Positions 19,664 to 51,633 are shown, numbered from the stretch's first letter. The stretch is 64,000 nucleotides of DNA from Cyanobacteria bacterium auto_48_18 (GCA_036170915.1 JAVHQC010000011.1:1-64000), one strand, 5' to 3'. Made by a program: numbers and translations. The notes: generated by a model from the letters alone, not told the origin.

Positions 19664-19705
19664 TCAATCCAATGGTTGAGTTTGACTTTTCATACCGAAG
19701 GTCGA
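19664..19705. promoter_or_regulatory. Two 7-2-7 inverted-repeat boxes (putative NarL-family sites)
   Basis: TCAATCC-AA-TGGTTGA (19664-19679) and TCATACC-GA-AGGTCGA (19690-19705). Confidence 0.55.
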
Positions 19706-19760
19706 TTCATATTGACGTTCGTAGCGACATACTCTTCAGTAGTGTTCTAGGGGAAGAATA

Positions 19761-20201
19761 ATGTTGCACAAGAAACTCAGGCTTATTGGTTATATTCGCT
19801 GTGGTGGCACTGATTTCGGTTCAGCGCAGCAGCGCAGAATGATTCAAAAATTCTGTGATGATCACGGCCATACTCTAGTGGGTTTCAGTGAGACTGACGG
19901 CAGTGTACCTGGTTATGGTTTGCATGAAGCTATTGACGCACTGGGAGCTAACGACGGCATAATCGCCATCGATCTCGACAGGTTTGTCCGGCACCACGAT
20001 GACCGATTACTTGACCTGCGGCCCTTGATTGAGAATATGCTGCACAATGGCAAAGTGTTAATCACATTACTGGATGGTATCGAAACTCTAACAGCGAGGG
20101 GTCAGCAGGTTACTCTTGATCTCTTAAACTCTTGGTCTGAAAGAGCAGGCGTGATAATGTCTCCAACTTTGGAAGGCCATCGTTCGGAGCAGGCCAATTA
20201 A
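19761..20201 (+). CDS. Resolvase N-terminal-domain protein lacking the catalytic Ser and the DNA-binding domain
   Basis: IGYIRCG in place of YARVS, followed by QQRRMIQKFC and DLDRFVR. Only 146 aa. Confidence 0.6.
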   Translation: MLHKKLRLIGYIRCGGTDFGSAQQRRMIQKFCDDHGHTLVGFSETDGSVPGYGLHEAIDALGANDGIIAIDLDRFVRHHDDRLLDLRPLIENMLHNGKVLITLLDGIETLTARGQQVTLDLLNSWSERAGVIMSPTLEGHRSEQAN

Positions 20202-20206
20202 CAACA

Positions 20207-21313
20207 ATGAATGTCACCACTGACATTCGCGGCGGCTCAGCTAAAGAAATAATTTTAGAGATCTGCTCTGAGTGGCCTGCCGATATGGTACTACTAGGCT
20301 CCCACCGTTTGGCCAGCTTACAGCGCTTTGCCCGCGGTAGCGTATCACTGGCTGTAACTCGAACCCAATTTAATATCTCAGCAGGAGCAAAACATATGAA
20401 GGTTCTCGTTGCAATTGATGACGCCGTCTCGGCTAAGGTCGTTTGTCAGTTTGTATCTAATCACAAATGGCCAGACGACACTGAATTGATGCTAACTCAC
20501 GCTGTCGACCCCGCCAGTTTTGACCTCAATAATATTGCCTTCAGCGATCTTGTAAATATCACTGAAACGGAAGCAGAATCAGATGCGCAGAAATTACTCA
20601 GTAGCCTGGCTGCAACAATCAGCTGGAGCCATCCAAAAGTTAACTGCCAAACTCAGATTGTTCGAGGAGAACCTGCTGACTCCATCATTCAGCTCACTCA
20701 ATCCTGGTCTGCTGATTTACTCATAGCTGGCTCACATGGCCGTTCTGGTTTTAAAAAAATTCTACTCGGTAGTGTTTCGATGACACTTCTGGCAAAAGCA
20801 CAGTGTTCAGTGCTCCTGGTTAAACCTGATCTGGTTCAAGATGATGAAAGCTTGAAATCCAAAAATAAATCGACCACGCCGATTATTGGCAGAATTCTAA
20901 TTGCCATGGATGAGACTGAAGTTTCCGATGAACTTATAACCTTCGTCACACAGCACATCTGGTCTAAGGCGGCACAGTTCAAAATTATTTCTGTAGTGCA
21001 CTATGCCCACACCATTGGTGTTTATCCTCCTCCAGAGATAGCCGGTCGTCTGGAGGCGATTTTAGATCAACGCCGTGCACACATGAAAATAGCTGTTGAG
21101 AAACTTCAAAAAGCACTTCCGAACCACAGTGTAATATCAGAAATAGTGGAAGGCGATCCCAAAGAAGAGATTGCCGAATTTGCAAAACACTGGTATGCCA
21201 GTATGGTAATCATCGGGCACCACAACCGCAAAGGTTGGGCAAAATTATTTGGCAGCACTTCTCTTGCCACTTTTTGCAATGCGCAATGCTCGGTGTTGAT
21301 GATTAGGAACTAG
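20207..21313 (+). CDS. Universal stress protein, two USP domains preceded by a half-domain
   Basis: MKVLVAIDD at 20396 after AGGAG, GSHGRSG...LLGSVS, and a second domain RILIAMD...GHHNRKG. Confidence 0.9.
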   Translation: MNVTTDIRGGSAKEIILEICSEWPADMVLLGSHRLASLQRFARGSVSLAVTRTQFNISAGAKHMKVLVAIDDAVSAKVVCQFVSNHKWPDDTELMLTHAVDPASFDLNNIAFSDLVNITETEAESDAQKLLSSLAATISWSHPKVNCQTQIVRGEPADSIIQLTQSWSADLLIAGSHGRSGFKKILLGSVSMTLLAKAQCSVLLVKPDLVQDDESLKSKNKSTTPIIGRILIAMDETEVSDELITFVTQHIWSKAAQFKIISVVHYAHTIGVYPPPEIAGRLEAILDQRRAHMKIAVEKLQKALPNHSVISEIVEGDPKEEIAEFAKHWYASMVIIGHHNRKGWAKLFGSTSLATFCNAQCSVLMIRN

Positions 21314-21384
21314 CTTAAGAGCAAGATCAATCTTCCTCTGCTACTAGCTTGTGAATTAATGGCTCTATTAGTTAAACCACAGTT

Positions 21385-22290
21385 TTAAGCTCTTTCAAGA
21401 TTACCTGCCGAAATCACTTGCTGCTCAGTGCAATCAGGTTGCTTCGGAGGCAAAAGCAAGGTTGCAGATGCCCCTAGATCTCGCACAAAATGATCAAGAG
21501 CTTGTCCTGTACAAAGATATTTTCCGATTTTGGTACTGCTTGTGGTTATTACCAGTAACGATTCTTTTTCCTTTTTCGCCGCGTCTGAATAGAAATCTTC
21601 TATCTCGTGAAGCTTTTTGCCTATTACAGCGACATTTGATTTAGTCGGTAGGTCAGCCTGCACCTGGTCAACAAGTTGACTTATGGTTTTCAGTCGACCA
21701 GTACAAACGATTTGCGCCTCGATGTCAAAATCTTGCTTGAGCTTTAGAAAATAGTTTAAAACGGACGTGTTATAGGTTTCTTCGCAAACCACCAGTCGAG
21801 CTCGTTCCCAGATGTGGCAAGGCCGCTGTACTATCAATATTGGTGTGGCGCAAGCTTCAGCAACTTGCTGACAGAGACTTTGTTTCATATGTCCATGTCT
21901 GAACTGGTTATCAAAACGACTGATTTCCTGATGTCCGATGATCAGCAAGTCATGATGCTCTGCTCGGCGGCAAATTTCTTCTTTTACGTTACCGTCGTCA
22001 ATTACCATTTCAACTGAAAGTTCGCTGCTAAACCTGGCCTCACAAGCGGTAACTAAAGTTTCGGCTAAAGATTTTAAGATCGTCTGCACGCTCTGATAGG
22101 CTGCCAGGTAAGGCCCGCTACCAATAATGCCAGGAAGCTCTTGACCAATTAGTTTCCACACGGCCTGACTGTTAACCACTGTTTGTACGGTTAATTTGGA
22201 ACCGGTTTTGCTGGCTAACAAGGCCGCGAGGTCCGCAGCCCACATAGCTTCCTGTGAACCATCCATAGCTAGCAGAAATGCCTTTTGCAT
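21385..22290 (-). CDS. Universal stress protein (long, divergent)
   Basis: FLLAMDGS, DLLIIGH and TPILIVQ. Start set at MQKAF. Paralogue of 43555-44490. Confidence 0.8.
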   Translation of the reverse strand: MQKAFLLAMDGSQEAMWAADLAALLASKTGSKLTVQTVVNSQAVWKLIGQELPGIIGSGPYLAAYQSVQTILKSLAETLVTACEARFSSELSVEMVIDDGNVKEEICRRAEHHDLLIIGHQEISRFDNQFRHGHMKQSLCQQVAEACATPILIVQRPCHIWERARLVVCEETYNTSVLNYFLKLKQDFDIEAQIVCTGRLKTISQLVDQVQADLPTKSNVAVIGKKLHEIEDFYSDAAKKEKESLLVITTSSTKIGKYLCTGQALDHFVRDLGASATLLLPPKQPDCTEQQVISAGNLERA

Positions 22291-22378
22291 TAGCCTTGAC
22301 CTTTTTGTACTTAACAAATCTATTAAACAAAAATACAAGGCAATCAGGCATCGACTGTAGGGATTAATCCCGTTGGCC

Positions 22379-23287
22379 TTATTGCCGTGGTGTGGGCTTT
22401 TTGCTTTCAGGTAAGGATTTTAAAAAATCGACCATGGCACTCATTTCTTGCGGAGATAGGTGCAAGGTGCGAATCATTTCTGGTTCATCATTGCCGCCTC
22501 GCAAGACCGCTTCCATTTCGGATCTACTCATCCTTGACGCGATTCCATCTAGCCTGGGGCCAAATCTTGTGGCTGCGCCATCGATTGTGTGGCATGCGGC
22601 GCATCCTCTGCTAAGAAACAAGGCACGACCTTTTTTTATTGATTCGGCACCACCAGAAGTGGCAGTGGTTTCCGCTTTAGTTGTTTTTGTTTCTTTTTTA
22701 GGAGCTGCCTTAGCATGCGTTGTTACTAGAAAACCATTTTCTGGGTCCGGTAAAGTGAGCAGGTAGGCTGTTATTAATTTCGCCTGGTCTAAATCAATAC
22801 CCAGATGCGGCATGATATTTGAACGACCGCCAAACAACACCGGAAATTCAAGCATCTGCTTTTCGGGGTCGAGAAGATGCGCGGTTATGAACTGTTCTCC
22901 GCGAGCCCCGCCAATACCATCAAGGGGAGGCCCTAGAGTACCACCTGCGCCCTCGGCCTCGTGGCAGCTGGCACAATTGTGTTTTTGGTAGAGGAGCTTG
23001 CCCTGACGGCTGGCATCAGACTTTGCTGGTGGTGTGTAACCGCTCGGAGGAAGGCGATAATGCTGTACAGTGCCGGCGCATTGGTTCATTCCTTCGGCCA
23101 GGTCTGGCACCGGTGTTGTAGGCCCTGGCAACTCTTTGCCGCTTTTATGCAGGCCGGTTACGGCGGGGGCGTTATGGTTTATCTTGCCTGAATAAATTTG
23201 CCTTTTGGCAAAAAGAGGTGCACTGCAAAACAAGATTGCGCACAGCAGCGATACCATTTTTGACGCGTTACGTAAGCCTCTGGTCAT
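22379..23287 (-). CDS. Exported di-heme cytochrome c
   Basis: Signal peptide. CASCH and CAACH, each followed by GP.LDGI. Confidence 0.9.
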   Translation of the reverse strand: MTRGLRNASKMVSLLCAILFCSAPLFAKRQIYSGKINHNAPAVTGLHKSGKELPGPTTPVPDLAEGMNQCAGTVQHYRLPPSGYTPPAKSDASRQGKLLYQKHNCASCHEAEGAGGTLGPPLDGIGGARGEQFITAHLLDPEKQMLEFPVLFGGRSNIMPHLGIDLDQAKLITAYLLTLPDPENGFLVTTHAKAAPKKETKTTKAETTATSGGAESIKKGRALFLSRGCAACHTIDGAATRFGPRLDGIASRMSRSEMEAVLRGGNDEPEMIRTLHLSPQEMSAMVDFLKSLPESKKPTPRQ

Positions 23288-23288
23288 T

Positions 23289-23726
23289 TTATATTACTGT
23301 TACCGAACACGGGGAATGCTCCACTACTGCCCGCCCCACGCTGCCGGGCCGATTGGTTGGGCAAATGTCTTTACCATGTGACCCTACAAGAATGGAATCG
23401 GCAGACCACGCTTCTGCTTCTTTGACGATTTCTGCCCAGGGTGCACCGTCTTTGATTTGATATACAGTACTGGTCTGCGGAAAAGTAGACTCTATTTTTT
23501 TACAGACTTTTTCACACAGGTGGCCGGCATCGTTTTTGCGCTGCTCGTAGATCTCCGCGGCGGTGTGGGAAAATTCGGATATGGTCACATCTTTAAACGA
23601 AACACAAACTGGCTCGAGGACTGTAATAATTTTGAATTCGGTGTTTGCAGGCCAGTCTCGCTCAAGCACAGAATCAACAACTTTGTCTGAGGTGGGGCTA
23701 TCGTCGATTGCTAGAATGATTTTCAT
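23289..23726 (-). CDS. Universal stress protein
   Basis: MKIILAIDDS, VGSHG, GSVGRAVVEHSPCSV. Confidence 0.9.
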   Translation of the reverse strand: MKIILAIDDSPTSDKVVDSVLERDWPANTEFKIITVLEPVCVSFKDVTISEFSHTAAEIYEQRKNDAGHLCEKVCKKIESTFPQTSTVYQIKDGAPWAEIVKEAEAWSADSILVGSHGKDICPTNRPGSVGRAVVEHSPCSVTVI

Positions 23727-23790
23727 TGCTTGAGCCTATGCAGAGTGCTGATACCTATGCCAAGTTTAGCGATAGAGGAAAAGTTTTACA

Positions 23791-23806
23791 TCATTCGCGT
23801 GGATGA
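23791..23806. promoter_or_regulatory. 7-2-7 inverted-repeat box
   Basis: TCATTCG-CG-TGGATGA upstream of the USP/cytochrome unit. Confidence 0.6.
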
Positions 23807-23841
23807 TACTTGCTGTCTTCCTTAGTCTTTATCTTTGTTTT

Positions 23842-24720
23842 CTATCTCCGCATTTGTTTTCTAAGCCAGTCGTACCAGCTATTTAGGCCGCTACCTTGGC
23901 GAGCTGAAATTTCAATGATTTTGATTTTCGGATTGACTGAAAGAGCATATTGTTTGCACAACTCGATGTCAAAATCGAGTTGTGGCAGCAAATCGATTTT
24001 GTTTAAAAGCAATATTTCAGCTGCCCTAAACATGTGGGGATACTTTACTGGTTTGTCCTCACCTTCGGTGATTGAGAGAATAGCCACTTTGCTTTTCTCA
24101 CCTAAATCGAACAAGGCCGGACAAACCAAATTGCCCACATTTTCAATAAACAGCACCGAATCGCGTGGTGGATTTAATTGTTTGAGACCGGCCGCCAGCA
24201 TCTGAGCATCGAGATGACAACCGGCCCCTGTATTGATTTGCACCACAGGGCAACCAGTCTTCTTGATGCGCTCGGCATCATTGAGAGTGGCCTGGTCTCC
24301 TTCAACCACACAAATTGAAAATTCATTTTGTAAATCTTTGATGGTACGCTCCAGCAGCGCTGTTTTACCAGCACCAGGAGCGCTGACTAAATTCAGAGCC
24401 AGTATATTTGTGCCTTCAAACCAGCCTCGATTTCTTTCGGCGAGAAGGTCATTTTTAGCGAGGATTTTTTCTTCTAGAGTAATTGTAGTAGAGACTTTGT
24501 GGGTGTGTTGATGATCGTGATCATGCCCGTGCTCATGCACATGATTATGTGTGTGGTCATGGTCGTCATGGCTATGCCCGTGACTGTGGCTGTGATTATG
24601 GCTATGATCATGGTGGCTTGTATCCACGTCTTGGTCGCTCAACATCGAGACTGAATTACCGGTTTGCAAATTTACTATTTTTGGGCTGGCATCATCTGAA
24701 CATCCACAAGTTGTGCACAT
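23842..24720 (-). CDS. hypB: Hydrogenase nickel incorporation GTPase HypB
   Basis: MCTTCGC N-terminus, His-rich tract, GAGKT, CHLDA and ENVGNLVCP. Confidence 0.97.
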   Translation of the reverse strand: MCTTCGCSDDASPKIVNLQTGNSVSMLSDQDVDTSHHDHSHNHSHSHGHSHDDHDHTHNHVHEHGHDHDHQHTHKVSTTITLEEKILAKNDLLAERNRGWFEGTNILALNLVSAPGAGKTALLERTIKDLQNEFSICVVEGDQATLNDAERIKKTGCPVVQINTGAGCHLDAQMLAAGLKQLNPPRDSVLFIENVGNLVCPALFDLGEKSKVAILSITEGEDKPVKYPHMFRAAEILLLNKIDLLPQLDFDIELCKQYALSVNPKIKIIEISARQGSGLNSWYDWLRKQMRR

Positions 24721-25049
24721 CACATCACCTCCATTTCTATTATGTTGAGTTCTTGACCGGCAAGGCAAACAATATCGCGAGAGCCGCATGGGCAAATTCC
24801 AGCCAGCAACGAAAGCTGCATTTCTTCTGAGCAGTGCTGACACTTACCGCGACCGGCTATTTCTTCAATTTCTAGGGTGGCTCCTTCTAAGAGAGTGTCT
24901 TGAGCACAGACATCAAAACAAAATCTGATCGCATCAGGCACAATTGCCGAGAGCATGCCGATTTCAAGCTTCACTCTAGTGACTTTTTGCTTGCCTGCTT
25001 TTTCACTAACGATGGCAACTATATTCTGGGTGACAGCGAGTTCGTGCAT
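24720..25049 (-). CDS. hypA: Hydrogenase nickel metallochaperone HypA
   Basis: MHEL N-terminus, CQHC, CPCGS and GQEL. Confidence 0.97.
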   Translation of the reverse strand: MHELAVTQNIVAIVSEKAGKQKVTRVKLEIGMLSAIVPDAIRFCFDVCAQDTLLEGATLEIEEIAGRGKCQHCSEEMQLSLLAGICPCGSRDIVCLAGQELNIIEMEVM

Positions 25050-26119
25050 TAGCAGATCCTCGGTAATTGATCGCCAACCAGCATGTCTACAATGCGCTCG
25101 CCACCAAATACAGTTTTTAAGATCACAGTTTCGGCCGGCGTACTAAAAACTTCGCCAATGATGGTGCTGTGTAACCCAGCCGGGTGATTGCGCATTGCTG
25201 CAAGTGCGGCCGAAGCCTGGTCGCGGGGTAAGATTATTACTACTTTTCCCTCATTTGCCAGGTAAAGCGCATCTAGACCAAGAATTTCGCACATGCCTCT
25301 GACCTCAGTGCGAATAGGAATTGCCGCCTCATCAATTTTGATGCAGCAACCGCTGCTGATGGCGAATTCATTCAGAACTGTTGCAATACCACCCCTGGTA
25401 GCATCACGCATACAATGCACTTGAGGACAGGCTGCAAGCAAGCTCTCAACTATGCCATTGAGAGGCTGACAGTCACTCTCAATATCATTTTCAATAGCGA
25501 GATCTCCTCTTGCTCCGACAATGGCCGCGCCGTGGTCGCCGATATAGCCGTTAATGAGAACGAGATCGCCAGGTGCTGCCAGTTGGGCGCCAACGTTAAT
25601 GTGCTTAGGTATGATACCAATGCCGGTGGTATTGATAAATATTTTGTCGGCTGCCCCGCGATCGACAACTTTGGTATCACCGGTAATTATTTTTACCCCG
25701 GCTGCATCAGCAGCCAGTTTCATTGAAGCTGTTATGCGGCGCAAGTCAGCTACCGGTAAACCTTCTTCAATGATGAAACTGCAGGTCAGGTAAAGGGCAA
25801 TTGCGCCTCCTACGGCTAAATCGTTGACAGTGCCGCAAACAGCCAGTTTGCCGATATCACCACCAGCAAAGAAAATCGGATCCACTACATATGAGTCGGT
25901 GGTGATCGCCAGCCTGTCACCAAGTTTGGTCAAGGCTGAAAGATCAACTCTTGCTTGATCTTCCATCATCAGCAATTCTTGATTGTCGAAACTTTTTAAG
26001 ATCACATCTTCAATTAAGTCGCGCATGGCCTTACCGCCGCCGCCGTGAGACATATTGATGGTCTCACTGGTCAAGATGCCACTACGCCGGCGCGTTGCTT
26101 TAGGGTTACTGCTGCTCAT
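25049..26119 (-). CDS. hypE: Carbamoyl dehydratase HypE
   Basis: HGGGG, GDTKVV, MRDATRGG and C-terminal PRIC. Confidence 0.97.
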   Translation of the reverse strand: MSSSNPKATRRRSGILTSETINMSHGGGGKAMRDLIEDVILKSFDNQELLMMEDQARVDLSALTKLGDRLAITTDSYVVDPIFFAGGDIGKLAVCGTVNDLAVGGAIALYLTCSFIIEEGLPVADLRRITASMKLAADAAGVKIITGDTKVVDRGAADKIFINTTGIGIIPKHINVGAQLAAPGDLVLINGYIGDHGAAIVGARGDLAIENDIESDCQPLNGIVESLLAACPQVHCMRDATRGGIATVLNEFAISSGCCIKIDEAAIPIRTEVRGMCEILGLDALYLANEGKVVIILPRDQASAALAAMRNHPAGLHSTIIGEVFSTPAETVILKTVFGGERIVDMLVGDQLPRIC

Positions 26120-27276
26120 GGCAGAGCCTCCTGCTTTTCCCTGGCCAGCTTCAAGGCCAACAATTCAGGAAGACTGCCAAAGTTGTAGTAGGCCGCGCAG
26201 GCGCCCTCTGACGAGACCATGAGTGCTCCCATTGGCGTTTCAGGAGTACATGCGCCGGCAAATACTTTGCATTGCCAGGGTTTAATTGCGCCTCTTAGTA
26301 CGTCGCCGCACTGACATGATTTTGGATCTGTAATTTTGACATTTGGCACCGCAAATTTTCTTTCAGCGTCAAATCTGGCGTACTCGTCTTTTATTTTGAT
26401 GCCCGAGTTATCGATAGAACCAAGCCCTCGCCATTCGAAAAATTCTCTCAGTTCAAAGACACGTTCCATTGCTACCAGAGCTTGTCGATTACCTCTGCTT
26501 GCCACCACTCGCGCGTACTGATTTTCAACCTCGGCCCGTTGCTCTGCGATTTGCTTAATCAAAAGCCAGATTGACTGCAATATATCGAGTGGTTCAAAGC
26601 CTGTGATCACAATTGGTTTTCTATATTTTTCAGCGACAAAGTTAAAAGGCTTCTCGCCCACTACCATGCTCACATGGCCTGGTGCCACGAATCCGTCAAG
26701 TTGCATATCTGAAGTATTCAAAATTGATTCTATTATGGGCACGGTGGTAATGTGATTGCAGAATAGAGAAAAGTTGTCTAAGCCATCAGCTTCGGCTTGA
26801 AGTACAGTCAGTGCCGTGCTTGGCATTGTTGTTTCAAAGCCCAGAGCAAAAAATATAACTTCGCGATTTTTATTTTCGTGGGCCAGACGCAGCGCATCTA
26901 GTGGTGAATAAACCATGCGCACATCAGCCCCATCTGCTTTTGCCTGAAGCAAGCTCATTTTTGATCCGGGCACCCGCATAGCGTCGCCAAATGTGGTGAG
27001 AATCACCTCTGGTCTTTGTGCCAGCGAAACACAGTCGTCAACTCGACCCATGGGCAACACACATACTGGGCAACCGGGACCGTGCACAAGTTCGATGCAT
27101 TTTGGCAATAATTGTTCAATGCCGTAGCGAAAAATTGTATGAGTGTGGCCTCCGCAAAATTCCATCAACTGTATGGGCCGTTGTTTGGAAAATTCGATCA
27201 CTTCAACCAGTTCGTTTATTTCCCGCACTAAAGTCTGTGCTAAAGCCGGGTCGCGAAATTCATCTACGTATTTCAT
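26116..27276 (-). CDS. hypD: Hydrogenase formation protein HypD
   Basis: MEFCGGHTH, GPGCPVC, GFETT and MVSSEGACAAYY. Confidence 0.97.
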   Translation of the reverse strand: MKYVDEFRDPALAQTLVREINELVEVIEFSKQRPIQLMEFCGGHTHTIFRYGIEQLLPKCIELVHGPGCPVCVLPMGRVDDCVSLAQRPEVILTTFGDAMRVPGSKMSLLQAKADGADVRMVYSPLDALRLAHENKNREVIFFALGFETTMPSTALTVLQAEADGLDNFSLFCNHITTVPIIESILNTSDMQLDGFVAPGHVSMVVGEKPFNFVAEKYRKPIVITGFEPLDILQSIWLLIKQIAEQRAEVENQYARVVASRGNRQALVAMERVFELREFFEWRGLGSIDNSGIKIKDEYARFDAERKFAVPNVKITDPKSCQCGDVLRGAIKPWQCKVFAGACTPETPMGALMVSSEGACAAYYNFGSLPELLALKLAREKQEALP

Positions 27277-27551
27277 ATGATGGTGCTCGTCATTGAGTCT
27301 AGTTCTTTTTGTGCCTCACCCAACTCTTGCAAGAGTGCCAGAGTCTTTTTTGCCTCTTCTTCTTCAATGCGGCTCATAGCGAAACCGACGTGCACCAGCA
27401 CCCATTCACCCAGACACGAATTGATGGGATGGTCTTGATCAACGATGCAAGTAATGTTGACTTCACGCCGAATTCCAGAAATAGCAACTTTTGCCAGATT
27501 TTTTTCGGGGTCGACTATTTCCACTATTTGACCAGGTATGCCAAGACACAT
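27273..27551 (-). CDS. hypC: HypC/HupF chaperone
   Basis: MCLGIPG and VLVHVGFA. Start moved to 27551. Confidence 0.97.
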   Translation of the reverse strand: MCLGIPGQIVEIVDPEKNLAKVAISGIRREVNITCIVDQDHPINSCLGEWVLVHVGFAMSRIEEEEAKKTLALLQELGEAQKELDSMTSTII

Positions 27552-27555
27552 GGTT

Positions 27556-37018: not shown

Positions 37019-37033
37019 GAGTCCTATTTTAGC

Positions 37034-38443: not shown

Positions 38444-38467
38444 GCAGACTTCCTAAAATATGCTTGC

Positions 38468-43057: not shown

Positions 43058-43552
43058 ATGAAAAATTTAAATCGAAATCTAATTGTTGCCCTTGCTGTTT
43101 TAGGTATTGCAAGTATCGTTTTCTCGAATCTCTCTCAGGCTAGAAACATTGAGAACAAAGCCAGTTCAAAAGCTACTGCAGACTCTTTGTGCGTGGGCCA
43201 CTTAGCACCTGTCAACAAAAAGAAAGGCGATCAATCTGAGGCTAAGGCAGAACCGGTTAATGATGCGAAACACACCAATGGTCGCGTTGCAGAAGGTCGA
43301 ATGCTCTTCTACGATCGTGGCTGCATAGTCTGCCACACGGTGCGCAATCGAGGCGGTCGTGTGGGCCCTTCCCTTGATGGCCTGGGTAAACGACACGACC
43401 GTCAGTATGTGGCCGGTCGCATTAATGATGCAGAATTCGTAGTCAAGCTAAAAAAAGATAGCGGTGAGCATGCTGCTTATGCCATGCCGCCTTCGGGGCT
43501 GACCAAGTCGCAGGCAGACTCATTAGCTGATTACATTATGACTTTACCCTAA
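43058..43552 (+). CDS. Exported mono-heme cytochrome c
   Basis: Signal peptide, CIVCH, GPSLDG and MPPS. Confidence 0.9.
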   Translation: MKNLNRNLIVALAVLGIASIVFSNLSQARNIENKASSKATADSLCVGHLAPVNKKKGDQSEAKAEPVNDAKHTNGRVAEGRMLFYDRGCIVCHTVRNRGGRVGPSLDGLGKRHDRQYVAGRINDAEFVVKLKKDSGEHAAYAMPPSGLTKSQADSLADYIMTLP

Positions 43553-43554: not shown

Positions 43555-44490
43555 TCACCTGACGTCGGCATGTTCCAGCTTTTCTGCGCCTGTTTCGCTG
43601 TGGTTCTTATATTCAAGATATTCCTCTGGCATGAGTAACATCGAGGAAGCAGTCAGGCAATGAACAAATGCCGAAGCATTGACGTCCAGCAGACTGACTC
43701 GCGCACCGGCAATCGCTCGTGTTGGTACTACTGGCAGAGTCGTGTCATAAGAGTCAGATGCAGCCTGCGATACTGAAAGATCGTCCAGCGAACTCAAGTT
43801 TATCTCAAGGTCTTTGGTCCTGGGATTAGCCTCCCTGAGCTGACAGATAATGTCCTCTGTGGATTTCGCTCGATTGTCAGTACCAAGGCAAACAATTATT
43901 GGCTTCAAATCCAGTAGCTCAGCAAAGTCAAGACAAGCGTCAATATATTTTTCGTTTAGATGTTCTAGTGAGACTAAAATTGACATTGTATTCCAGCTTT
44001 GACCATTGTCTTGAACAACCAAGAGTGGAACTGGACAGCTGTGAGTCAGGGCCTCAGCAAAAGAAGTACGCTCGACACTTTTGTGACTCTGTTGTTTGGC
44101 AGTTATTGAAAGGGGGGCCTTATGGTGGTGACCAACAACCACCAGGTCGTGGGCTTTAGCGCGCTCGCACACTGCAGTTACCGGATCACCTTTTTCGAGG
44201 ACAAAACTGGAGGTGACACCATATTTGGCGGCTTCATTCAAATATCGATTTTGCAATTGCTGGCCAATTGCCCAGAGAGATTTACTCAAATAATCATAGA
44301 CAGACTTGTACTCTTTAGATGAAACAAAGCCCTCGGGCTCTCTTATGACAAATTCTCTAGCGCCTTCAGTATCAACTACATGATGAGCTACAACACTTGC
44401 ATCGGCTGCATTGGCCAGCCGAAAACACAGATTTGCAGCATGAACTGCATAAATTGATCCGTCCAGAGACAGCAATATAGACCGGTTCAT
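43555..44490 (-). CDS. Universal stress protein (long, divergent)
   Basis: ILLSLDGS, GDP, DLVVVGH and CPVPLLVV. Start set at MNRSI. Confidence 0.8.
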   Translation of the reverse strand: MNRSILLSLDGSIYAVHAANLCFRLANAADASVVAHHVVDTEGAREFVIREPEGFVSSKEYKSVYDYLSKSLWAIGQQLQNRYLNEAAKYGVTSSFVLEKGDPVTAVCERAKAHDLVVVGHHHKAPLSITAKQQSHKSVERTSFAEALTHSCPVPLLVVQDNGQSWNTMSILVSLEHLNEKYIDACLDFAELLDLKPIIVCLGTDNRAKSTEDIICQLREANPRTKDLEINLSSLDDLSVSQAASDSYDTTLPVVPTRAIAGARVSLLDVNASAFVHCLTASSMLLMPEEYLEYKNHSETGAEKLEHADVR

Positions 44491-44594
44491 TTTCAACCTT
44501 CTCCACCGTTGGCAAGTATAATTAACCGTACAAGCAAAGGACAACTCATCTGCTGCACCAGCATTATTATGCAGCTTACTTTTCAAGCTTAATA

Positions 44595-44610: not shown

Positions 44611-44713
44611 ATCTTTAGAGAAGAATGCCGATTTGTTTGATGCTTAAGGTGGATGGCGTTTGCAGATAAATGATGGAAAATACAGTGAACGCACAGGTTT
44701 AAGGAGCGATGGA

Positions 44714-45229
44714 ATGAAAGTATTGATTGCAGTGGACGATTCACTTTGTTCACACGAGGCAGTAAGCGTTGTGGCTAATCGACCCTGGGCTGATGGCACG
44801 CAGTTTAAAATTGTTCACGTGGTAGAGCCCATTGCCGCACAATATGGGCTGGTTGCTCCTGAGGCTGTTAGTCTAATGCTAGAGGCCGAGAAAAAGCTTA
44901 AGGCGTATGGTGTCAAATTTACAACCGACATCGGCGACTATCTCAAAGAAATCTTCGGCGACCAACAAGTGAGCTCAGTCGTTATTGGTGGCTATATTGC
45001 CGACTCAATTATTGAGCTGGCAAGAGATTGGCATGCTGATGTGATAGTAGTCGGCTCACATGGTCGTACTGGTTTGGACAAAATTTTGCTCGGTAGCGTT
45101 GCCGAAAAAATCGTCAACCGCTCACATTGTTCTGTTGAAGTGATCAAAATGAAAATCAAAAAAAATGATGACACATCTTCTAAAGATGACGGAAGTAATG
45201 CACTCGCAAAACAAAAACAAGCCGTATAG
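44714..45229 (+). CDS. Universal stress protein
   Basis: AAGGAG before MKVLIAVDDS. ATP-binding motif GSHGRTG...LLGSVA. Confidence 0.93.
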   Translation: MKVLIAVDDSLCSHEAVSVVANRPWADGTQFKIVHVVEPIAAQYGLVAPEAVSLMLEAEKKLKAYGVKFTTDIGDYLKEIFGDQQVSSVVIGGYIADSIIELARDWHADVIVVGSHGRTGLDKILLGSVAEKIVNRSHCSVEVIKMKIKKNDDTSSKDDGSNALAKQKQAV

Positions 45230-45255: not shown

Positions 45256-45714
45256 ATGAAAGTAATAATTGCCGTCGACCAAACAGATAACTGGAAGCAA
45301 ATTATTGAAGCTACAGTTAAACGCTCATGGCCGTCAGATACCATTTTTAGAATTCTTACTGTGGTCGAGCCTGGTGCTGATGCTCTGGACAAAACAAAAA
45401 CGCATCAAGCACATACTGCCGATAGGGTGGTGCATGAAGCACGGGCACTAATGTTTGAGCATTTGCCCGGATGCACTGTTTATAGCGAAGTACGAAAGGG
45501 CAAAGCCGCCGATGAATTAGTCACTGTTGCCGCCAATTGGATGGTTGACAAAATCATATTGGGAACCCATGGTCGCAAGGCAAATCGCCTGATACCAGCG
45601 ACGGTGCCGCAGCTTGTCAGTCAAAATTCTTGTTGCTCAGTTGACCTTGTTAAATTAACACCAGTAAAAGCTTCTGTGGGCGAATCATCACTAACCCAGG
45701 CCACTGCTCAATAG
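45256..45714 (+). CDS. Universal stress protein
   Basis: MKVIIAVD and LGTHGR. Confidence 0.85.
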   Translation: MKVIIAVDQTDNWKQIIEATVKRSWPSDTIFRILTVVEPGADALDKTKTHQAHTADRVVHEARALMFEHLPGCTVYSEVRKGKAADELVTVAANWMVDKIILGTHGRKANRLIPATVPQLVSQNSCCSVDLVKLTPVKASVGESSLTQATAQ

Positions 45715-45742
45715 AGCACCACCTTTTAGACAAGGAAATACA

Positions 45743-46534
45743 ATGACAGGCACCCACTGCAATAAGTTAACACTGGCCAAGACTCATATTCAAGTTGCCC
45801 GCATGGCATATAGCGCCGGAGAATATACCGCCGCCTTCAAAAATTTGAATACGGCTGAGCGTGAACTGGAGGAACATGATCTTTCTGTGGACGACTTAAC
45901 GCTTTTTGATCTGAGAAAATTCTTTGGCAAAGTGCGTGTTGCACTCGGCATGTTCGGTCAAGCGGAGGGTGATTTTCAGCGGGCGCTCGACCTGGCCAGG
46001 ACCTCTTCTGAAATTCCCGAAAAAAGTTTGTTTTCCATAAAGCGTCATCTGGCCGATTGCATTCGTTTGAGAAGCCGATTCGACCAAGCTGAGTCTATTT
46101 ACCGTGAACTTATAGGCGCTTTAGAAGATAAAGAACCGCCAATAGGCAATCAACTTGCTAAATCATACATGGGTCTTGCAACTGTGCTTATAGATAGTGG
46201 TAAGACAGGGGAAGCGCGACCCTTTATCGACAAAGCCATTCAATTAATTGAAGACGGACCAGGCCGCAAGTGTTTTTGGTATGGCAGAGCACTGATTGTT
46301 AAAGCACGGTTGTGCTGTGCTATTGGTCAGAAGCTGGAGGCACATGAGCTATTTCAACACGCACTGTCTATCGTCGAACCATTAATTGGCGCAGAACACC
46401 CGCTGGCGCGCTTGCTTGAGCGAAAGAAGAGCGAGCCTGTTCACCTGATTTTTGCAGAATTGAAAAACATAGAAAAACAGCTAAAAGACCACCAGCTAGA
46501 TAGTGAACATTCAATTTCAGGCAGTCTGCTTTAA
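45743..46534 (+). CDS. TPR-repeat protein
   Basis: TPR-like helical repeats and a GAEHP motif. Confidence 0.75.
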   Translation: MTGTHCNKLTLAKTHIQVARMAYSAGEYTAAFKNLNTAERELEEHDLSVDDLTLFDLRKFFGKVRVALGMFGQAEGDFQRALDLARTSSEIPEKSLFSIKRHLADCIRLRSRFDQAESIYRELIGALEDKEPPIGNQLAKSYMGLATVLIDSGKTGEARPFIDKAIQLIEDGPGRKCFWYGRALIVKARLCCAIGQKLEAHELFQHALSIVEPLIGAEHPLARLLERKKSEPVHLIFAELKNIEKQLKDHQLDSEHSISGSLL

Positions 46535-46966
46535 CGAAACCAAAATCACTGAACAGGGCCCCTCGTTAACAATGGCTCGAGCAATGCTACCAAGGGTAAA
46601 TTTGTTTGCTCCGCGACGGCCATGAGCGGCTACAGCTATAGAATCTGCCGACCATCTCTTTGCATTTTCAACAATAGTGTCAACGACAAAGCCGTTTTGT
46701 ACCTCTGCTGTTACTACTGACTGAGGAAAAATCGAGCGCAGCATTTCTGCCGTTTCGTGCACAACCTTCTCTCCATCTGCAAACGCTTTTTGTTTAATTT
46801 CATCGAGCATTGGTCCAGGAAGGATGCTCATGTAGCTCCCCACCGTCAAAGGCTCAACTACGTGTAGAACCTTCAGTTCGTCGCCTTCGGCTAGCTTAAA
46901 GCCGCGCAAATAGTCAACTATATTTTGACTCGAACCACTCTGATCAATGGCAACTAATATTTTCAT
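46517..46966 (-). CDS. Universal stress protein
   Basis: GAGGA before MKILVAIDQS. HGRRG...LGSIA and GPCSV. Confidence 0.9.
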   Translation of the reverse strand: MKILVAIDQSGSSQNIVDYLRGFKLAEGDELKVLHVVEPLTVGSYMSILPGPMLDEIKQKAFADGEKVVHETAEMLRSIFPQSVVTAEVQNGFVVDTIVENAKRWSADSIAVAAHGRRGANKFTLGSIARAIVNEGPCSVILVSLKQTA

Positions 46967-47057
46967 GGCTTTTCCTCTTTTCTGATTATCTACTAGCGCC
47001 AGCCTTCTAGCTTCCATCGCATAGCCTATCTTAAGTAGGCCGCGATGAGAACAGTTT

Positions 47058-47180: not shown

Positions 47181-47702
47181 ATGGCTCTAAATGTAGCACT
47201 CCTAACAGAAAGTTTTGAGCGCGCCAAACGTGAGAGCGGTGGTACAACCAGTCTGGGCATGAGCTTTTACAAAAGGCTTTTTGAGAAATACCCATCTGTA
47301 AAACCATTATTTACGAAGCCTCCGGAAGTTCAGCACAAAATGTTGATGTCTGCTCTGGCCACAATTGTTGCCCAGGCAGATCAATCAGATCAGCTCGTTC
47401 CTTATCTTCATGCGCTTGGTATTCGGCATCTTTTATATAAAACCGAAAATGCTCATTATTCAGCTGTGGCCGAGAATCTTCTTGCTGTTCTGCGCGAGCA
47501 TTTAAGCAAGGAAGGTGAATGGACCGACGCCATGCAAGAAACGTGGACAGCCGCGATTGCCTTGATTGTCAAAGTGATGATGGAAGCGTCGAATAATCCT
47601 GAAGCATACGCCGAAGAATTGGCAAATCATGGCTATGGTCCAAACGGATTGGTAATTCAGAAATGTGGTGTATCAACTGATGGCAGACCTGAAGTTTCCT
47701 AA
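47181..47702 (+). CDS. Single-domain globin (Vgb/flavohemoglobin-like)
   Basis: FYKRLF (B10 Tyr), PLF (CD1 Phe), Gln at E7, LGIRH (F8 His) and HYSAV. No reductase domain. Confidence 0.9.
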   Translation: MALNVALLTESFERAKRESGGTTSLGMSFYKRLFEKYPSVKPLFTKPPEVQHKMLMSALATIVAQADQSDQLVPYLHALGIRHLLYKTENAHYSAVAENLLAVLREHLSKEGEWTDAMQETWTAAIALIVKVMMEASNNPEAYAEELANHGYGPNGLVIQKCGVSTDGRPEVS

Positions 47703-48102
47703 TGTGCGACTTCAGCTTCATGATCTGATCGCTAAAGATAAACATTCGCCACCATATGCAATGGCACACCTGGCCGTACTTTCTGGTCTCATTCCAGAGC
47801 ATGCATTAAAAGCTATTGTCGCGGTTGAGCCGCTGGACATGTGCCTCTGCATGGCATCTGCCGAACAAATTATTGAAGAGTACTTAAGAAACTTACCAGC
47901 GAAGACTAACTTCCCCTCAATCAAGGCATCTCACATTGGTTGCAGTTTGGCTAAAGCAGCTGAAACGCATATTAAAAGCACCACAAGCGATAACTTTCTA
48001 TCTGCTGGTATGAACCTGCCCAGCCACGATTGTCATCGCTTTGCTCCCATACTTTTTGATCTTATGCTTCAACAATTGATGCGTTATCCGGGCCTTGAGT
48101 AA
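47680..48102 (+). CDS. Hypothetical protein
   Basis: ORF fills the gap after the globin and overlaps both neighbours slightly. Confidence 0.4.
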   Translation: MADLKFPNVRLQLHDLIAKDKHSPPYAMAHLAVLSGLIPEHALKAIVAVEPLDMCLCMASAEQIIEEYLRNLPAKTNFPSIKASHIGCSLAKAAETHIKSTTSDNFLSAGMNLPSHDCHRFAPILFDLMLQQLMRYPGLE

Positions 48103-49714
48103 GAAGTTTAAAACTAAATGTCGCCCCAGGGCCTGGGCTATCACGGCACCAGATTCTACCGCCGTGTCCTTCAATAATGCGCCGACAAAGGTAAAGCCCT
48201 AACCCGGTACTAGCATAGTAACGACCCGTCGAACCAGCTTGCCAAAATCGCTGAAATAATTTTGGCCGATTTTCCTCTGGTATACCCTTCCCTGTATCAC
48301 TGATACTAAATGTAGTGTACTGATCATCTTGTTTCAAACTAACTTCAACCGAGCCGCCGTCAGGTGTAAACTTCAATGAGTTGTCAATCAGATTCTGAAT
48401 TACCCGACGAATTTCCTCCTGATCGCAGCGAACTTCTTGCGATGCTTCTGGTAGTTTTGCGCTCAATGTCACGCCCTTCTCTTTAGCGAGGGGCATAATC
48501 TCGCTGAGCAATTTTGTGATTAGTTTGACTAAATCGCATTTCTGCAGGTGAAATTCTTTAACGCCGCTATCGAAACGATAAACATCGAGAAGGGTTTGAA
48601 CAAGGCTGTAAAGAGCAGTATTGCTCTGCAAAATTGTCTCTAGCACAACTGTCTGTGATTCGGGTATGGGCCCGAAGTCGCCGTCGAGCATGAAACGCAC
48701 CGCTCTATTGGTGGCGGATACTGGCGTCTTTAGATCGTGGGTTAAGGTAGCAACAAAATCTTCGCGCTGCTGTTGCAGCAAAACGCTGGCGGTCGTATTG
48801 GTAAACATGGCCACCAGGCCCGTCATATTGCCGTCATTGTCTTTAACTGGCCATGCAAGCCAGTCCCAATAATTATTATCGCCACTACCTTTTTTTGAAA
48901 GTTTTAGCGGGTCACCAGTATGCTTGATAAACTGGCCGCCCTTTAGTACTGCTTCAAAAAGTTGAGGGGTCAAGGCCGGTGCAAATTCGAAAAGAGGCTT
49001 AGCGACTAGATCAGCACGGCTGCCACCATCAACTTGTTCGACAAACTTGTCGTTGCATTCGAGACAAATCATGTCGCGGTTTAAGCTGATAATGCCCACA
49101 GGAGAATTTTCTAGAATAGACTTGGTTACTCGCCTCTCTGTTTCTAACTCGCGAATTGAATCTGTGTGATATCTCAAGGCAGCTTCTTTAGCGGAGATGT
49201 AGCAATCTATTGCCAGGCCCATATCTAAAAACACCAATTTCATCAGTGCTGAAATAGCCTTACACAGCTTGTCCGAGTCACCTTCATATTTGCCTATTAC
49301 TTTTGGTAAAAACCATCCTAAAACCCGATTATAGGCGCCGATATACCACTTGGGGTCAAGCTCGATGCGATGATGCGTGGCACCAACCCTCAATCTATCA
49401 TTGGCATAATCGGTGCCGTAATTTCCTTTGGTTAGCCTGACAAAATAGTCTTTTTGAGCTGCTTGAGCCCTTTTTAGGATTTGTTCATTGGGAAAATAGC
49501 TACGTGTCTCTTCAAAGGTTAGAAAATGCGCATACATTGACTCGATCAATTCATCAATATGATCAGTAACCAGCTTGTCAAGCTCGAGTTCAATCATCTC
49601 TTCGTCGCTAGCCGAAAATTCTAGCCAACGTTTGCGCAGCTCAACTTCTTCAGCGTTTAGCGTCAATGCCGAGGAAGGCCTGTCGGGCTCTCTCTTCAAT
49701 TCAAACTTCCCCAT
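48062..49714 (-). CDS. Globin-coupled (protoglobin-type) PAS sensor histidine kinase
   Basis: Sensor globin (SMYAHF, RLRVGATHHRIELDPKWYIGAY, KLVFLD), PAS domain, THDLKTP, NSLKFT, DTGKGI and GLGL. No TM segments. Confidence 0.92.
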   Translation of the reverse strand: MGKFELKREPDRPSSALTLNAEEVELRKRWLEFSASDEEMIELELDKLVTDHIDELIESMYAHFLTFEETRSYFPNEQILKRAQAAQKDYFVRLTKGNYGTDYANDRLRVGATHHRIELDPKWYIGAYNRVLGWFLPKVIGKYEGDSDKLCKAISALMKLVFLDMGLAIDCYISAKEAALRYHTDSIRELETERRVTKSILENSPVGIISLNRDMICLECNDKFVEQVDGGSRADLVAKPLFEFAPALTPQLFEAVLKGGQFIKHTGDPLKLSKKGSGDNNYWDWLAWPVKDNDGNMTGLVAMFTNTTASVLLQQQREDFVATLTHDLKTPVSATNRAVRFMLDGDFGPIPESQTVVLETILQSNTALYSLVQTLLDVYRFDSGVKEFHLQKCDLVKLITKLLSEIMPLAKEKGVTLSAKLPEASQEVRCDQEEIRRVIQNLIDNSLKFTPDGGSVEVSLKQDDQYTTFSISDTGKGIPEENRPKLFQRFWQAGSTGRYYASTGLGLYLCRRIIEGHGGRIWCRDSPGPGATFSFKLLTQGPDNASIVEA

Positions 49715-49758
49715 CTTATTGGCAGGCTATAATTATGACTCTTCGGTAAAGGCTCATT

Positions 49759-50499
49759 ATGTCTGACCAAACACCTTCTGCGACTGTTAACTCCATAAAT
49801 GTATTGCTGGTTGAAGATCATGTTCTGACGAGATTGGGTCTCAGAGCTGCTTTGCAGAGAACTCAAGATATCCATGTAGTTGGTGAAGCCTCTAATGGAG
49901 AGGAAGCGATCGGCCTGGCCGAGTCATTGCAACCGCATGTCATTCTTATGGATGTTGGTATGCCGGTGATGGATGGCATTCAAGCGGCTGCGAAAATCAT
50001 CGGACGACAACCGGCTATTAAAATTATCATGCTCACGCAGCATGATAATGAGTCAGACATTATGGCTTCTCTAGGTGCAGGTGCCAGTGGCTATTGCCTG
50101 AAAGATGTGGAGCCTGAGAGGCTATACATGGCTATTCGGTCGGTTAATGCTGGTGATGCGTGGCTCGACGCGGCCATAGCGAGCAAGGTGCTGAGACATT
50201 ATTCACCAGTGGTGGCACCAACTAAAGTTAAAACGACTGCCCCAGAAGCAAAGTCTGCGCCCAACCACGTAGATGAAAGTAGTGCTGATATCGACCGCCC
50301 CGCACCAGATGCTCTTTCTCCTCGAGAACTAGAGGTGATGAAGCTGATTGTTGATGGTCTCTCCAATCAAGAAATCAGTGACAAGTTATTTGTCTCACTG
50401 GCCACGACCAAAACCCACGTGCGCAATATTCTCAACAAGCTGGCTGTGGACGATCGTACGCAGGCAGCTGTGCATGCGATGCGTCGTGGGCTGGTTTAA
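49759..50499 (+). CDS. NarL/FixJ-family response regulator (REC + LuxR HTH)
   Basis: VEDH, MDVGMP, LKD and LSPRE...NQEI...KTHVRNILNKL. Confidence 0.95.
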   Translation: MSDQTPSATVNSINVLLVEDHVLTRLGLRAALQRTQDIHVVGEASNGEEAIGLAESLQPHVILMDVGMPVMDGIQAAAKIIGRQPAIKIIMLTQHDNESDIMASLGAGASGYCLKDVEPERLYMAIRSVNAGDAWLDAAIASKVLRHYSPVVAPTKVKTTAPEAKSAPNHVDESSADIDRPAPDALSPRELEVMKLIVDGLSNQEISDKLFVSLATTKTHVRNILNKLAVDDRTQAAVHAMRRGLV

Positions 50500-50515
50500 C
50501 AGCAAGCTCGAGCTA

Positions 50516-50558
50516 TGCACCGTAAGGCTGATTTGCTTCGACTAGTCCTAACGGATGG
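50516..50558. promoter_or_regulatory. Two degenerate 7-2-7 boxes upstream of the aeRF1-like gene
   Basis: TGCACCG-TA-AGGCTGA (50516-50531) and TAGTCCT-AA-CGGATGG (50543-50558). Confidence 0.45.
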
Positions 50559-50616
50559 CGAGAGCAACAGTTAACGCTGCTATGGTAATCATGTCGACCG
50601 ATTAACAGGACATATC

Positions 50617-51633
50617 ATGAACGAAATTATCAATGAGCTACTGCAGTGTGAGAACGAACCGGTGCTTACCCTGATAGTTGATCTGGACATGAATCGAAAA
50701 GAGAACGAGGCAAAACTAAAACACCTTGCATCAGAAGTGCAACATCTGAAATTAGATCTCCCCGATTCGACCCGCGACATACTTTTTAAGCGGCTTGAAT
50801 TGATTTTGCAAAGTATTGATGGAACATTGTTTAATGGCAGCGTTGCCATTTTTGCTGCTGCCAACTTCGGCAAAATTTTTCCCTTGCATTACCACGCTAA
50901 ACCTCGAGTGGTTGCCGACAATGGTTTTGCTCTCACTGAAATAGCTTACAGCACCAGCACGTTCCCTCTATGCCACGTCTTAGTTTTTAGCTGCCATGGA
51001 GTGCGGGTATTTAGCAAAAATGGAGAGCATGTATCAGAAATTGCAGACAACCCTGCCGCCGCTCATGCCACTCATCTGCTCAAAGCATTGGCTCACAGCG
51101 GACACGTAAATGAAGCCAAAAACAGTGGACGTGGAGTAAAGGCATGCTCTGATCCGAAACTCAAGGCGGCGATTTCTGCTCTGTCAGAAACCCTTGAAGG
51201 ACCAATGATCATTGCTGGAGCCTCGCACGCCGGAGAGTTGCCACCATCGTTGGACAGCCGAAGCATTGCCACCGTAGATGGTTGCTACGAGAACGCATCA
51301 ATAGCTGATATTGCAAAAGTCGCGCAAGAAGCATGCGAGAAAGCAAGCACCGAAAGAGCACAAAATTACCTGGAAGCCATCGAAGCATTTTTGCATGAGA
51401 AGCGTCTTGGCTCTGGCAACGATGAAATTGAGCAACTAATTTTGGCAGGCCGGGTGCAGACACTTTATGTGGAGGATGATGCGGCTATCAGCATTAAGGC
51501 TTCCGAGCAACATAAACTCTCGGAAGAAGATCGAATGATAGCGTCGGCTCTGCGATACAAAGGCGAAATCGTCTTTCTGCCAAAAGAGAGTTTGTCGAAC
51601 TATGGTGCTATGGCCGCAGGCTTGCGATTTTAG
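50617..51633 (+). CDS. Bacterial aeRF1-like protein (baeRF; Balon/Rv2629-like)
   Basis: SVAIFA, PMIIAG, GRVQTLYVE and C-terminal ALRYKGEI...GAMAAGLRF. No GGQ. Confidence 0.75.
   Translation: MNEIINELLQCENEPVLTLIVDLDMNRKENEAKLKHLASEVQHLKLDLPDSTRDILFKRLELILQSIDGTLFNGSVAIFAAANFGKIFPLHYHAKPRVVADNGFALTEIAYSTSTFPLCHVLVFSCHGVRVFSKNGEHVSEIADNPAAAHATHLLKALAHSGHVNEAKNSGRGVKACSDPKLKAAISALSETLEGPMIIAGASHAGELPPSLDSRSIATVDGCYENASIADIAKVAQEACEKASTERAQNYLEAIEAFLHEKRLGSGNDEIEQLILAGRVQTLYVEDDAAISIKASEQHKLSEEDRMIASALRYKGEIVFLPKESLSNYGAMAAGLRF

Follow-up and report, generated by a model that had tools for sequence, protein, structure and literature searches.

A 32-kb gene cluster (positions 19664..51633) on a contig of Cyanobacteria bacterium auto_48_18 (GCA_036170915.1, JAVHQC010000011.1) brings together a [NiFe]-hydrogenase, universal stress protein (USP) genes, c-type cytochromes, a globin-coupled sensor kinase and a NarL-family regulator, and raises the question of whether one oxygen sensor controls these genes, and with which sign. 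The window, the whole stretch of DNA that we analysed, is the first 64 kb of contig C11 (64,000 nucleotides), in a genome of 4.94 Mb that is 86% complete. A first-pass annotation had described the cluster as a self-contained, independently assembled equivalent of the mycobacterial DosR regulon in a probable melainabacterium. That lineage is supported by the names on the closest proteins, which place the genome in the Obscuribacterales, non-photosynthetic relatives of cyanobacteria. As judged from sequence, the best explanation of the locus is probably a single chain, in which the globin kinase senses low O2 and acts through the NarL-type regulator and a shared palindromic box on the hydrogenase and stress genes.

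The palindromic box and its promoter position

A promoter motif had been proposed to link the genes of the cluster, and it is real: TCATCC-N4-GGATGA was recovered de novo from other genera. The degenerate pattern TCAWYC-N4-GRWTGA, chosen by eye from the intergenic DNA of the window so that its count there is post hoc, gave 11 matches in the window with at most one mismatch, compared with 2.24 ± 1.48 in shuffled sequence, and none of 100 shuffles reached 11. The matrix for the box came from unseeded expectation maximization on 101 masked upstream segments, taken from other genera only. A first de novo run had returned the sequence of USP start codons, and the coding parts were masked for the second, which yielded aTCatCC-N4-GGaTGAt with a log-likelihood of 225 compared with 65 for shuffles. 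Applied to the 32-kb cluster, this matrix found seven sites of at least 14 bits where 0.23 were expected, all seven upstream of genes. The strong boxes occupy seven of the ten upstream regions counted in the cluster, weak sites lie in two more, and the intergenic gap between kinase and regulator is box-free in the window. The boxes are:

19664..19679, box upstream of the resolvase-like gene and a USP gene, 15.3 bits
19690..19705, weaker second box, with CATACT 22 nt downstream, 9.9 bits
23791..23806, box with TAAACT 22 nt downstream towards the USP-cytochrome genes, 16.7 bits
30105..30120, box between hypF and the cytochrome/beta-CASP/ATPase operon, 19.1 bits
42058..42073, box upstream of hoxE, with TAGACT 22 nt downstream, 15.5 bits
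44595..44610, box between divergent USP genes, 16.1 bits
47060..47075, box between a USP gene and the globin gene, 15.8 bits
50516..50531, box upstream of the Balon-fold gene, 14.1 bits
50543..50558, weak second box, with TATGGT 22 nt downstream, 8.9 bits

Upstream sites of at least 14 bits belong to just 0.65% of the 4128 open reading frames (ORFs) of the genome. Among 57 loci outside the training set, 49 had at least one site and together they held 148, compared with 6.0 for column-permuted matrices, although the genomes compared are related, so that these locus and site counts overstate independence. Fifteen loci around other NarL paralogues (208,821 bases), by contrast, contained no strong site.

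The box also keeps a fixed distance from a putative -10 element. At 218 non-redundant sites, a TAnnnT started 22 nt after the box in 44 cases and 23 nt after it in 19, compared with 5.9 ± 2.4 at other offsets; the 63 sites with either spacing compare with 10.3 ± 3.3 among permuted-matrix control sites, for which the maximum in 88 sets was 20. A -35 match of 4/6 at 17-nt spacing accompanied the spaced -10 at three of the 63. In standard sigma-70 geometry this spacing puts the box at -50 to -35 with its centre at -42.5, where class II activators bind, and we therefore read the box, from its spacing, as standing at an activator position.

Strong boxes were also found outside the island in this genome, before a phosphoketolase gene, a rhodanese/TauE operon and a desaturase gene, and a site of at least 12 bits is present at 10 of 30 phosphoketolase loci. 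A second group of boxes in the source genome (contig C18, 24.3-33.0 kb) precedes the rhodanese-TauE-metallo-hydrolase operon, the phosphoketolase gene and a TPR/bestrophin pair; the phosphoketolase gene there adjoins a glycogen debranching gene, and a USP gene with an internal stop lies at C18:20755. The genome of one relative, G036, contains an island of about 85 kb (contig C38, 59-145 kb) with 24 pattern matches where 3.4 were expected, whose cargo includes a group 3b hydrogenase, narGHJI, qNor, radical SAM genes, phosphoenolpyruvate (PEP) synthase and phosphoketolase.

The kinase-regulator pair, the hydrogenases and their distribution

Profile searches found Protoglobin (PF11563, 122 bits), PAS, HisKA and HATPase domains in the kinase, and no GAF domain. 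Its Tyr61 and His114 align with Tyr45 and His99 of AfGcHK from Anaeromyxobacter and are invariant in 19 orthologues; by its residues, a proximal His and a distal Tyr in a globin domain joined to a kinase, the protein is a globin-coupled sensor kinase. A CxxC at residues 217-220, within the PAS domain, is frequent in close orthologues without being universal, and is a possible second, redox input. The regulator consists of a receiver and a GerE domain, and its helix SLATTKTHVRN is near-invariant across the family; the letters K-T-H-x-R presumably contact bases, as in NarL.

A full-length kinase was found in all 14 genomes of the same genus (two cut by contig ends), in 17 of 22 from other genera of the family, in all three of the sister family and in none of 21 genomes from other orders. 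A 400-genome sample of the phylum added nine genomes with a related globin domain, and the two best of these, which are the two that were read, lack the kinase core. Two loci from two other families of the phylum (L165 and L166, genomes G081 and G165) combine a globin and a STAS-like tail beside RsbS/RsbT-like genes and resemble an O2-sensing stressosome. The genome collection gave 80 loci, of which seven proteobacterial ones (six globin-GGDEF/EAL proteins and one globin with a STAS-looking C-terminus) were removed. In 70 of the remaining 73 the regulator stands head-to-head with the kinase, the exceptions being one locus without a regulator, one truncated contig and one non-orthologous globin protein. 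Within 10 kb of the kinase lie USP genes in 60 of the 73 loci, hydrogenase or hyp genes in 36, c-type cytochromes in 28 and a P-type ATPase in 27, and the order of island genes is freely shuffled among relatives. A scan of 127 unlabelled ORFs from six genomes found narGHJI, qNor, PEP synthase, Hsp20, FtsH, acyltransferases, acetate kinase and a desaturase as further cargo; relatives also carry NnrS, and their qNor, NnrS and nar genes lie in the island with boxes.

As read from these neighbourhoods, the locus forms the central part of a regulon that is conserved across Obscuribacterales, shuffled rather than kept as a fixed cluster. The cluster that the annotation described stands insofar as kinase, regulator, box, USPs and group 3 hydrogenase are conserved together, and falls short in that the regulon is shuffled and the Hox enzyme, the globin and the Balon-fold gene are variable. 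To call it self-contained was an overstatement, with about eight more USP genes elsewhere in the genome and strong boxes on other contigs too.

Both nickel-binding motifs are present in HoxH and, together with hoxEFUYH and the maturation genes, assign the hydrogenase to group 3d. Among 39 relatives within the order, each of which showed a single match, nine have Hox (HoxH 70-96% identical), 22 a four-gene enzyme of group 3b type and eight neither; all 31 hydrogenase-bearing relatives have the kinase, five kinase-less genomes lack hydrogenase and three have the kinase only. The group 3b layout of genome G003 is beta-gamma-delta-alpha, for which the beta, gamma and alpha sulfhydrogenase models were best or near best, at scores below the archaeal cut-offs. 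Each of the 20 large subunits examined (19 of group 3 and one of another type) has a site of at least 11 bits within 7 kb upstream, and these boxes stand mostly at the operon head, including that of operons on other contigs. Mapping the 3b/3d label onto a 41-row kinase tree takes eight or nine changes, of which at least five are forced by strongly supported branches; repeated transfer or differential loss would both fit this alternation.

The enzyme shares with cyanobacterial-type HoxEFUYH the five-subunit layout with HoxW and hypFCDEAB, and its HoxH has 65-67% identity to proteins whose names assign them to Chloroflexota and a cyanobacterium, but it stands behind the globin-kinase box and alternates with group 3b among relatives. 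BLAST found hoxF as the only NuoF-like gene (genome 86% complete), and in members that have Hox, HoxEFU might supply complex I as well. Neither pyruvate formate-lyase nor narG was found in this genome, at that completeness. The Hox island of genome G027 (contig C49, 242-256 kb) also encodes a [NiFe]-hydrogenase of a different type, whose large subunit has 539 aa and which comes with separate hyp genes and a 17-bit box.

As to its origin, the core of the kinase clusters (SH-aLRT 99, quick tree) with other kinases of this genome and with those of related orders, apart from 15 globin kinases, which came from the 47 scanned of the 150 best representatives; AfGcHK is absent from the tree. As a mobile module, the globin also occurs on cyclases, chemoreceptors and other kinases, and the globin-PAS-kinase layout is likewise found elsewhere. 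Independent assembly, as the annotation had it, is supported by the lineage-own clade of the kinase core and by the absence of the DosR box from the cluster. The most similar regulator belongs to another order of the class, family f8, in all five of its genomes; three of the five pair it with a FixL-like PAS kinase and nearby boxes, two are arranged differently, and in one genome cytochrome c-narGHI is preceded by a 22-bit box. Islands in which the box accompanies a FixL-like PAS kinase in that order (genome G056, C1:432-452 kb; genome G045, C17:3-11 kb) also hold c-type cytochromes, Rieske/cytochrome b, a USP gene, a beta-CASP gene and a nar operon. Once an inner paralogue was included, the orthologues and the f8 regulators formed one side of a branch (84/64), and an alternative grouping was not rejected (p 0.33); a clade test that omitted this paralogue had rejected the group (p 0.014). 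The tree allows the window and f8 regulators to be orthologues without proving it. Photosynthetic cyanobacteria were considered as bearers of the system and set aside: a regulator whose helix is similar occurs in two genomes, and 12 pattern-match loci had neither hydrogenase nor USP targets. OrrA was considered as a possible equivalent, and the review consulted on it gives no binding sequence to compare.

Gene content of the cluster

Every gene named in the annotation is present at its place, and two that it missed were added, the resolvase-like domain (19761-20201) and the Cys-bearing gene (47680-48102). The cluster has seven USP genes and four c-type cytochromes, three with two CxxCH and one with a single CxxCH. 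Its genes are:

19761..20201, + strand, resolvase-like catalytic domain without the usual serine (PF00239, E 2.5e-7), a recurrent island gene (23 of 73 loci)
20207..21313, + strand, tandem USP, probable start 20396, half a USP domain in frame before it
21385..22338, - strand, USP, long form, probable start 22290
22379..23287, - strand, diheme c-type cytochrome
23289..23726, - strand, USP
23842..29985, - strand, hypF-C-D-E-A-B maturation operon (NCBIfam equivalogs above cut-off)
30166..30954, + strand, diheme c-type cytochrome
30976..32367, + strand, beta-CASP metallo-hydrolase, metal motifs intact
32387..35146, + strand, type II P-type ATPase (TGES, PEGL, DKTGT, GDGVND)
35165..36505, - strand, acetyl-CoA hydrolase/CoA-transferase, final gene of the hox run
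36521..41935, - strand, hoxE-F-U-Y-H-W, group 3d [NiFe]-hydrogenase (HoxU above cut-off; HoxE 219/224 bits)
42121..42936, - strand, diheme c-type cytochrome
43058..43552, + strand, monoheme c-type cytochrome
43555..44586, - strand, USP, long form, probable start 44490
44660..45229, + strand, USP, probable start 44714
45256..45714, + strand, USP
45743..46534, + strand, TPR protein
46517..47017, - strand, USP, probable start 46966
47181..47702, + strand, single-domain globin (Tyr30, Phe44, Gln51, His83)
47680..48102, + strand, 140-aa protein of no known family, two invariant Cys (homologues in 31 kinase loci)
48062..49714, - strand, Globin-PAS-HisKA-HATPase sensor kinase (Tyr61, His114; His326 with DxxT)
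49759..50499, + strand, NarL-family response regulator (Asp65; helix SLATTKTHVRN), head-to-head with the kinase
50617..51633, + strand, Balon-fold (aeRF1-like) protein without GGQ or NIKS

Several of these genes vary among relatives. The single-domain globin lies inside the island here, in genome G006 and in two of the 73 collection loci, and outside it in 13 other genomes without a box and in two with one; the protein resembles the globin domain of flavohemoproteins. The aeRF1-like protein is mostly a genus-level gene (13 of 14 same-genus genomes; eight of 73 loci). Its identification was borne out in modelling, which predicts a Balon fold. The model from a 22-row alignment (pLDDT 86.3) matched Balon first (E 2e-19, TM 0.63), with Msmeg1130 (TM 0.68) and Rv2629 (TM 0.61) ahead of or among release factors; a single-sequence model reached pLDDT 41.5, and a single-sequence PDB search gave only a weak pelota match. 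The profile match leans on closer paralogues in the alignment. With Balon of P. urativorans, Msmeg1130 and Rv2629 the protein shares a three-domain aeRF1-like fold without GGQ or NIKS, but identity is 13-17%, and the protein scores 73 bits where the family cut-off is 330 and has not kept the T-H-R-x-H-P stretch of Balon. On the strength of the model, the product of 50617-51633 is likely a ribosome-hibernation protein.

The resolvase-like protein has YIRCGG where the serine motif is expected, lacks a DNA-binding domain and is boxed; it may be an inactive recombinase that has been put to use as a stress protein. The 140-aa family, which has invariant Cys55 and Cys118 and, in most members, a third Cys, is usually convergent on the kinase; it is absent from more than half of the 73 kinase loci and had no Pfam or NCBIfam match at the thresholds used. 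Its conserved cysteines make a metal or Fe-S protein possible. A predicted complex of this protein with the PAS-kinase dimer scored 0.01, which gave no answer and was not used as evidence.

The C-terminal half of another USP domain, in frame at 20207-20395 before the tandem USP, is likely a deletion remnant. Antitoxin-type genes resembling HigA or HicB flank the cluster (9822-10633, 11623-12141 and 51673-52562); HicB alone is Pfam-confirmed and the others were read from sequence. G+C is even across the 64-kb window, and no long repeats that might flank a mobile island were found around the cluster. An Rfam search of the window gave zero matches, and a generic promoter and terminator scan of it gave chance level only. 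Contig C7 of the source genome (5.6 kb, 50% G+C) encodes proteins read as proteobacterial and is a possible contamination of the bin.

Proposed direction of the oxygen switch and rival readings

DosS/DosT-DosR resembles the system proposed here, in domains and gene content, by its pairing of a heme kinase with a NarL-family regulator and by a cargo of USPs, a cation ATPase, a Balon homologue, Hsp20, PEP synthase and a group 3 hydrogenase. The sensor here is globin-PAS and not GAF-GAF, and the kinase class is HisKA, whereas that of DosS is HisKA_3. The DosR box, by its consensus and with at most three mismatches, matched twice in the window and nowhere in the cluster, against 3.9 expected. In M. 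smegmatis, DosR controls HspX, PEP synthase and the group 3b hydrogenase Hyh (bioRxiv 2023.09.11.557286); most relatives of the window carry 3b too, and this genome has the 3d Hox. Rv2629/Msmeg1130 is induced by hypoxia (PMC10901736). The system would work like DosR but is not DosR, having another sensor, kinase class and box. The likeness asserted in the annotation holds for the kind of wiring and cargo and is not specific, since USPs, cation ATPase, Hsp20 and an FtsH-like protease recur in other hypoxia regulons, among them the lxa locus of Burkholderia cenocepacia. That locus of about 50 kb, with six USPs, a cation ATPase, alpha-crystallin, a Zn protease and one palindrome, is induced by low O2 (PMC3721108). 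Its motif is TGA-N6-TCA, Fnr/Anr-like, and the locus is not known to hold a globin kinase or a hydrogenase. A search of the window with the FNR box consensus, TTGAT-N4-ATCAA, gave six matches where 4.15 were expected, none of them in the cluster. FixL/FixJ is a further parallel, in that a FixL-like PAS kinase pairs with the similar regulator and box in f8, where the sensor here is a globin.

AfGcHK and the NmpRSTU system of Myxococcus xanthus likewise have a histidine kinase with a sensor globin, in which the distal Tyr and the proximal His are the same as here, and Nmp controls a low-oxygen regulon that includes a USP (PMC11841059). Nmp differs in its inverting second kinase and NtrC/sigma-54 regulator, compared with the PAS domain, NarL-type neighbour and -10-anchored promoter found here, and the core of our kinase groups with lineage-own kinases (on the tree from which AfGcHK itself is absent). 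Clustered USP-rich hypoxia islands, globin kinases and a DosR-controlled group 3b hydrogenase are already known. In open-access full-text literature we found no description of this combination in this lineage; subscription papers and supplements were outside the scope of that search.

NarL-type regulators activate when phosphorylated. Because the regulator is adjacent, the box stands at an activator position and hydrogenase and nar are among the targets, a kinase that is on in the deoxy state is the simplest reading. In the proposed mechanism, the globin-PAS kinase would bind heme and read O2 on it, phosphorylate the adjacent NarL-type regulator in its deoxy form when O2 falls, and act as a phosphatase when O2 is present (DxxT after His326). 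The phosphorylated regulator would bind TCATCC-N4-GGATGA and activate from about -42.5, switching on hydrogenase, stress and hibernation-like genes. Hox would then reoxidize NAD(P)H or ferredoxin and release H2; phosphoketolase (encoded on another contig), acetate kinase and the CoA-transferase could support substrate-level ATP formation, and the USPs and the Balon-fold protein may damp metabolism and translation. We infer H2 evolution and translational dormancy at low O2 from this scheme, in which the direction of H2 flow is taken from the analogy with M. smegmatis Hyh and is not fixed by sequence.

Several observations weigh against such a chain, besides the relatedness of the genomes compared. 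AfGcHK is active as its O2 complex and inactive when deoxy (PMC8697598), and M. xanthus reaches low-O2 activation through a second, sign-inverting kinase (PMC11841059), of which no counterpart, inverter or hybrid second kinase, is conserved beside the pair at the 73 loci. The description of the sensor as a globin in place of GAF-heme was correct as to its domains and hid this problem of sign; the wiring predicts that our kinase is on without O2, opposite to AfGcHK. The number of strict-pattern matches per genome does not follow the presence of the kinase, being 6-17 in five kinase-less genomes at a similar rate per Mb. Boxes precede a globin gene (G016) and phosphoketolase genes (G016, G020) in genomes 89% and 94% complete where the kinase-regulator pair was not found. 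A NarL paralogue on contig C4 has the same K-T-H-x-R helix letters, and the Balon-fold gene is strongly boxed in only two of 14 loci. Cargo that uses O2, the desaturase and the globin, is boxed too, and the oxidases and 2-oxoacid oxidoreductases of this genome have no box of at least 9 bits directly upstream.

Three rival explanations draw on these points. The kinase could be O2-on like AfGcHK, with the 140-aa Cys protein or the PAS domain as accessory inverter, or with a micro-oxic or re-oxygenation programme instead of an anoxic one; O2-on behaviour was measured for AfGcHK (PMC8697598) and modelled for NmpU (PMC11841059), the heme-site Tyr and His are retained, homologues of the 140-aa protein occur in 31 kinase loci, and the boxed desaturase and globin would suit such a programme. 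We regard it as unlikely, however, given the activator-position box before hydrogenase operons and nar, the absence of the 140-aa gene from over half of the 73 loci and the lack of a second kinase conserved by the pair. A gas-stress regulon, with NO, CO or the redox state of the heme as its input instead of O2, would agree with the boxed qNor, NnrS and nar genes of relatives' islands, with the flavohemoprotein-like single globin and with the response of AfGcHK to CO and Fe(III) (PMC8697598). It seems to us quite improbable, as USPs and group 3 hydrogenase, and not NO detoxification, make up the constant part of the cargo, and the qNor-length enzyme of this genome is unboxed, beside its own probable Rrf2-type regulator. 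It is very unlikely that other NarL paralogues read the box and that the globin-kinase pair is a mere passenger of the island: the shared helix letters, the boxes in genomes where the pair was not found and the box-free kinase-regulator gap would fit, but strong sites numbered 0 at 15 paralogue loci and 148 at 57 held-out orthologue loci, the helix of the regulator is near-invariant across its family, and in another order the most similar regulator accompanies the same box.

We thus favour control of the box by the deoxy-activated globin kinase and its NarL-type neighbour. A wider reading, to which we give somewhat less than an even chance, is that an inverted-sign globin kinase, on without O2 and wired straight to an activator, would be the master low-O2 switch of aerobic non-photosynthetic cyanobacteria; that the regulator and box would be older than this sensor, the same box being paired with a heme-PAS kinase in a sister order; and that 3b and 3d hydrogenases would have replaced each other under the box on at least five occasions.

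For O2 sensing in the non-photosynthetic sister lineages of oxygenic cyanobacteria, of which we found no description in the literature searched, this work offers a candidate sensor, a regulator, a binding site with its promoter position and a list of targets. It raises the biochemical question of whether a globin-coupled kinase can have a sign opposite to that of AfGcHK, with the PAS domain as the cause. The exchange of 3b and 3d under one box suggests that both groups do the same low-O2 job, and the overlap of its cargo with that of DosR and lxa, which answer to unrelated sensors, suggests that a set of low-oxygen genes recurs among aerobes.

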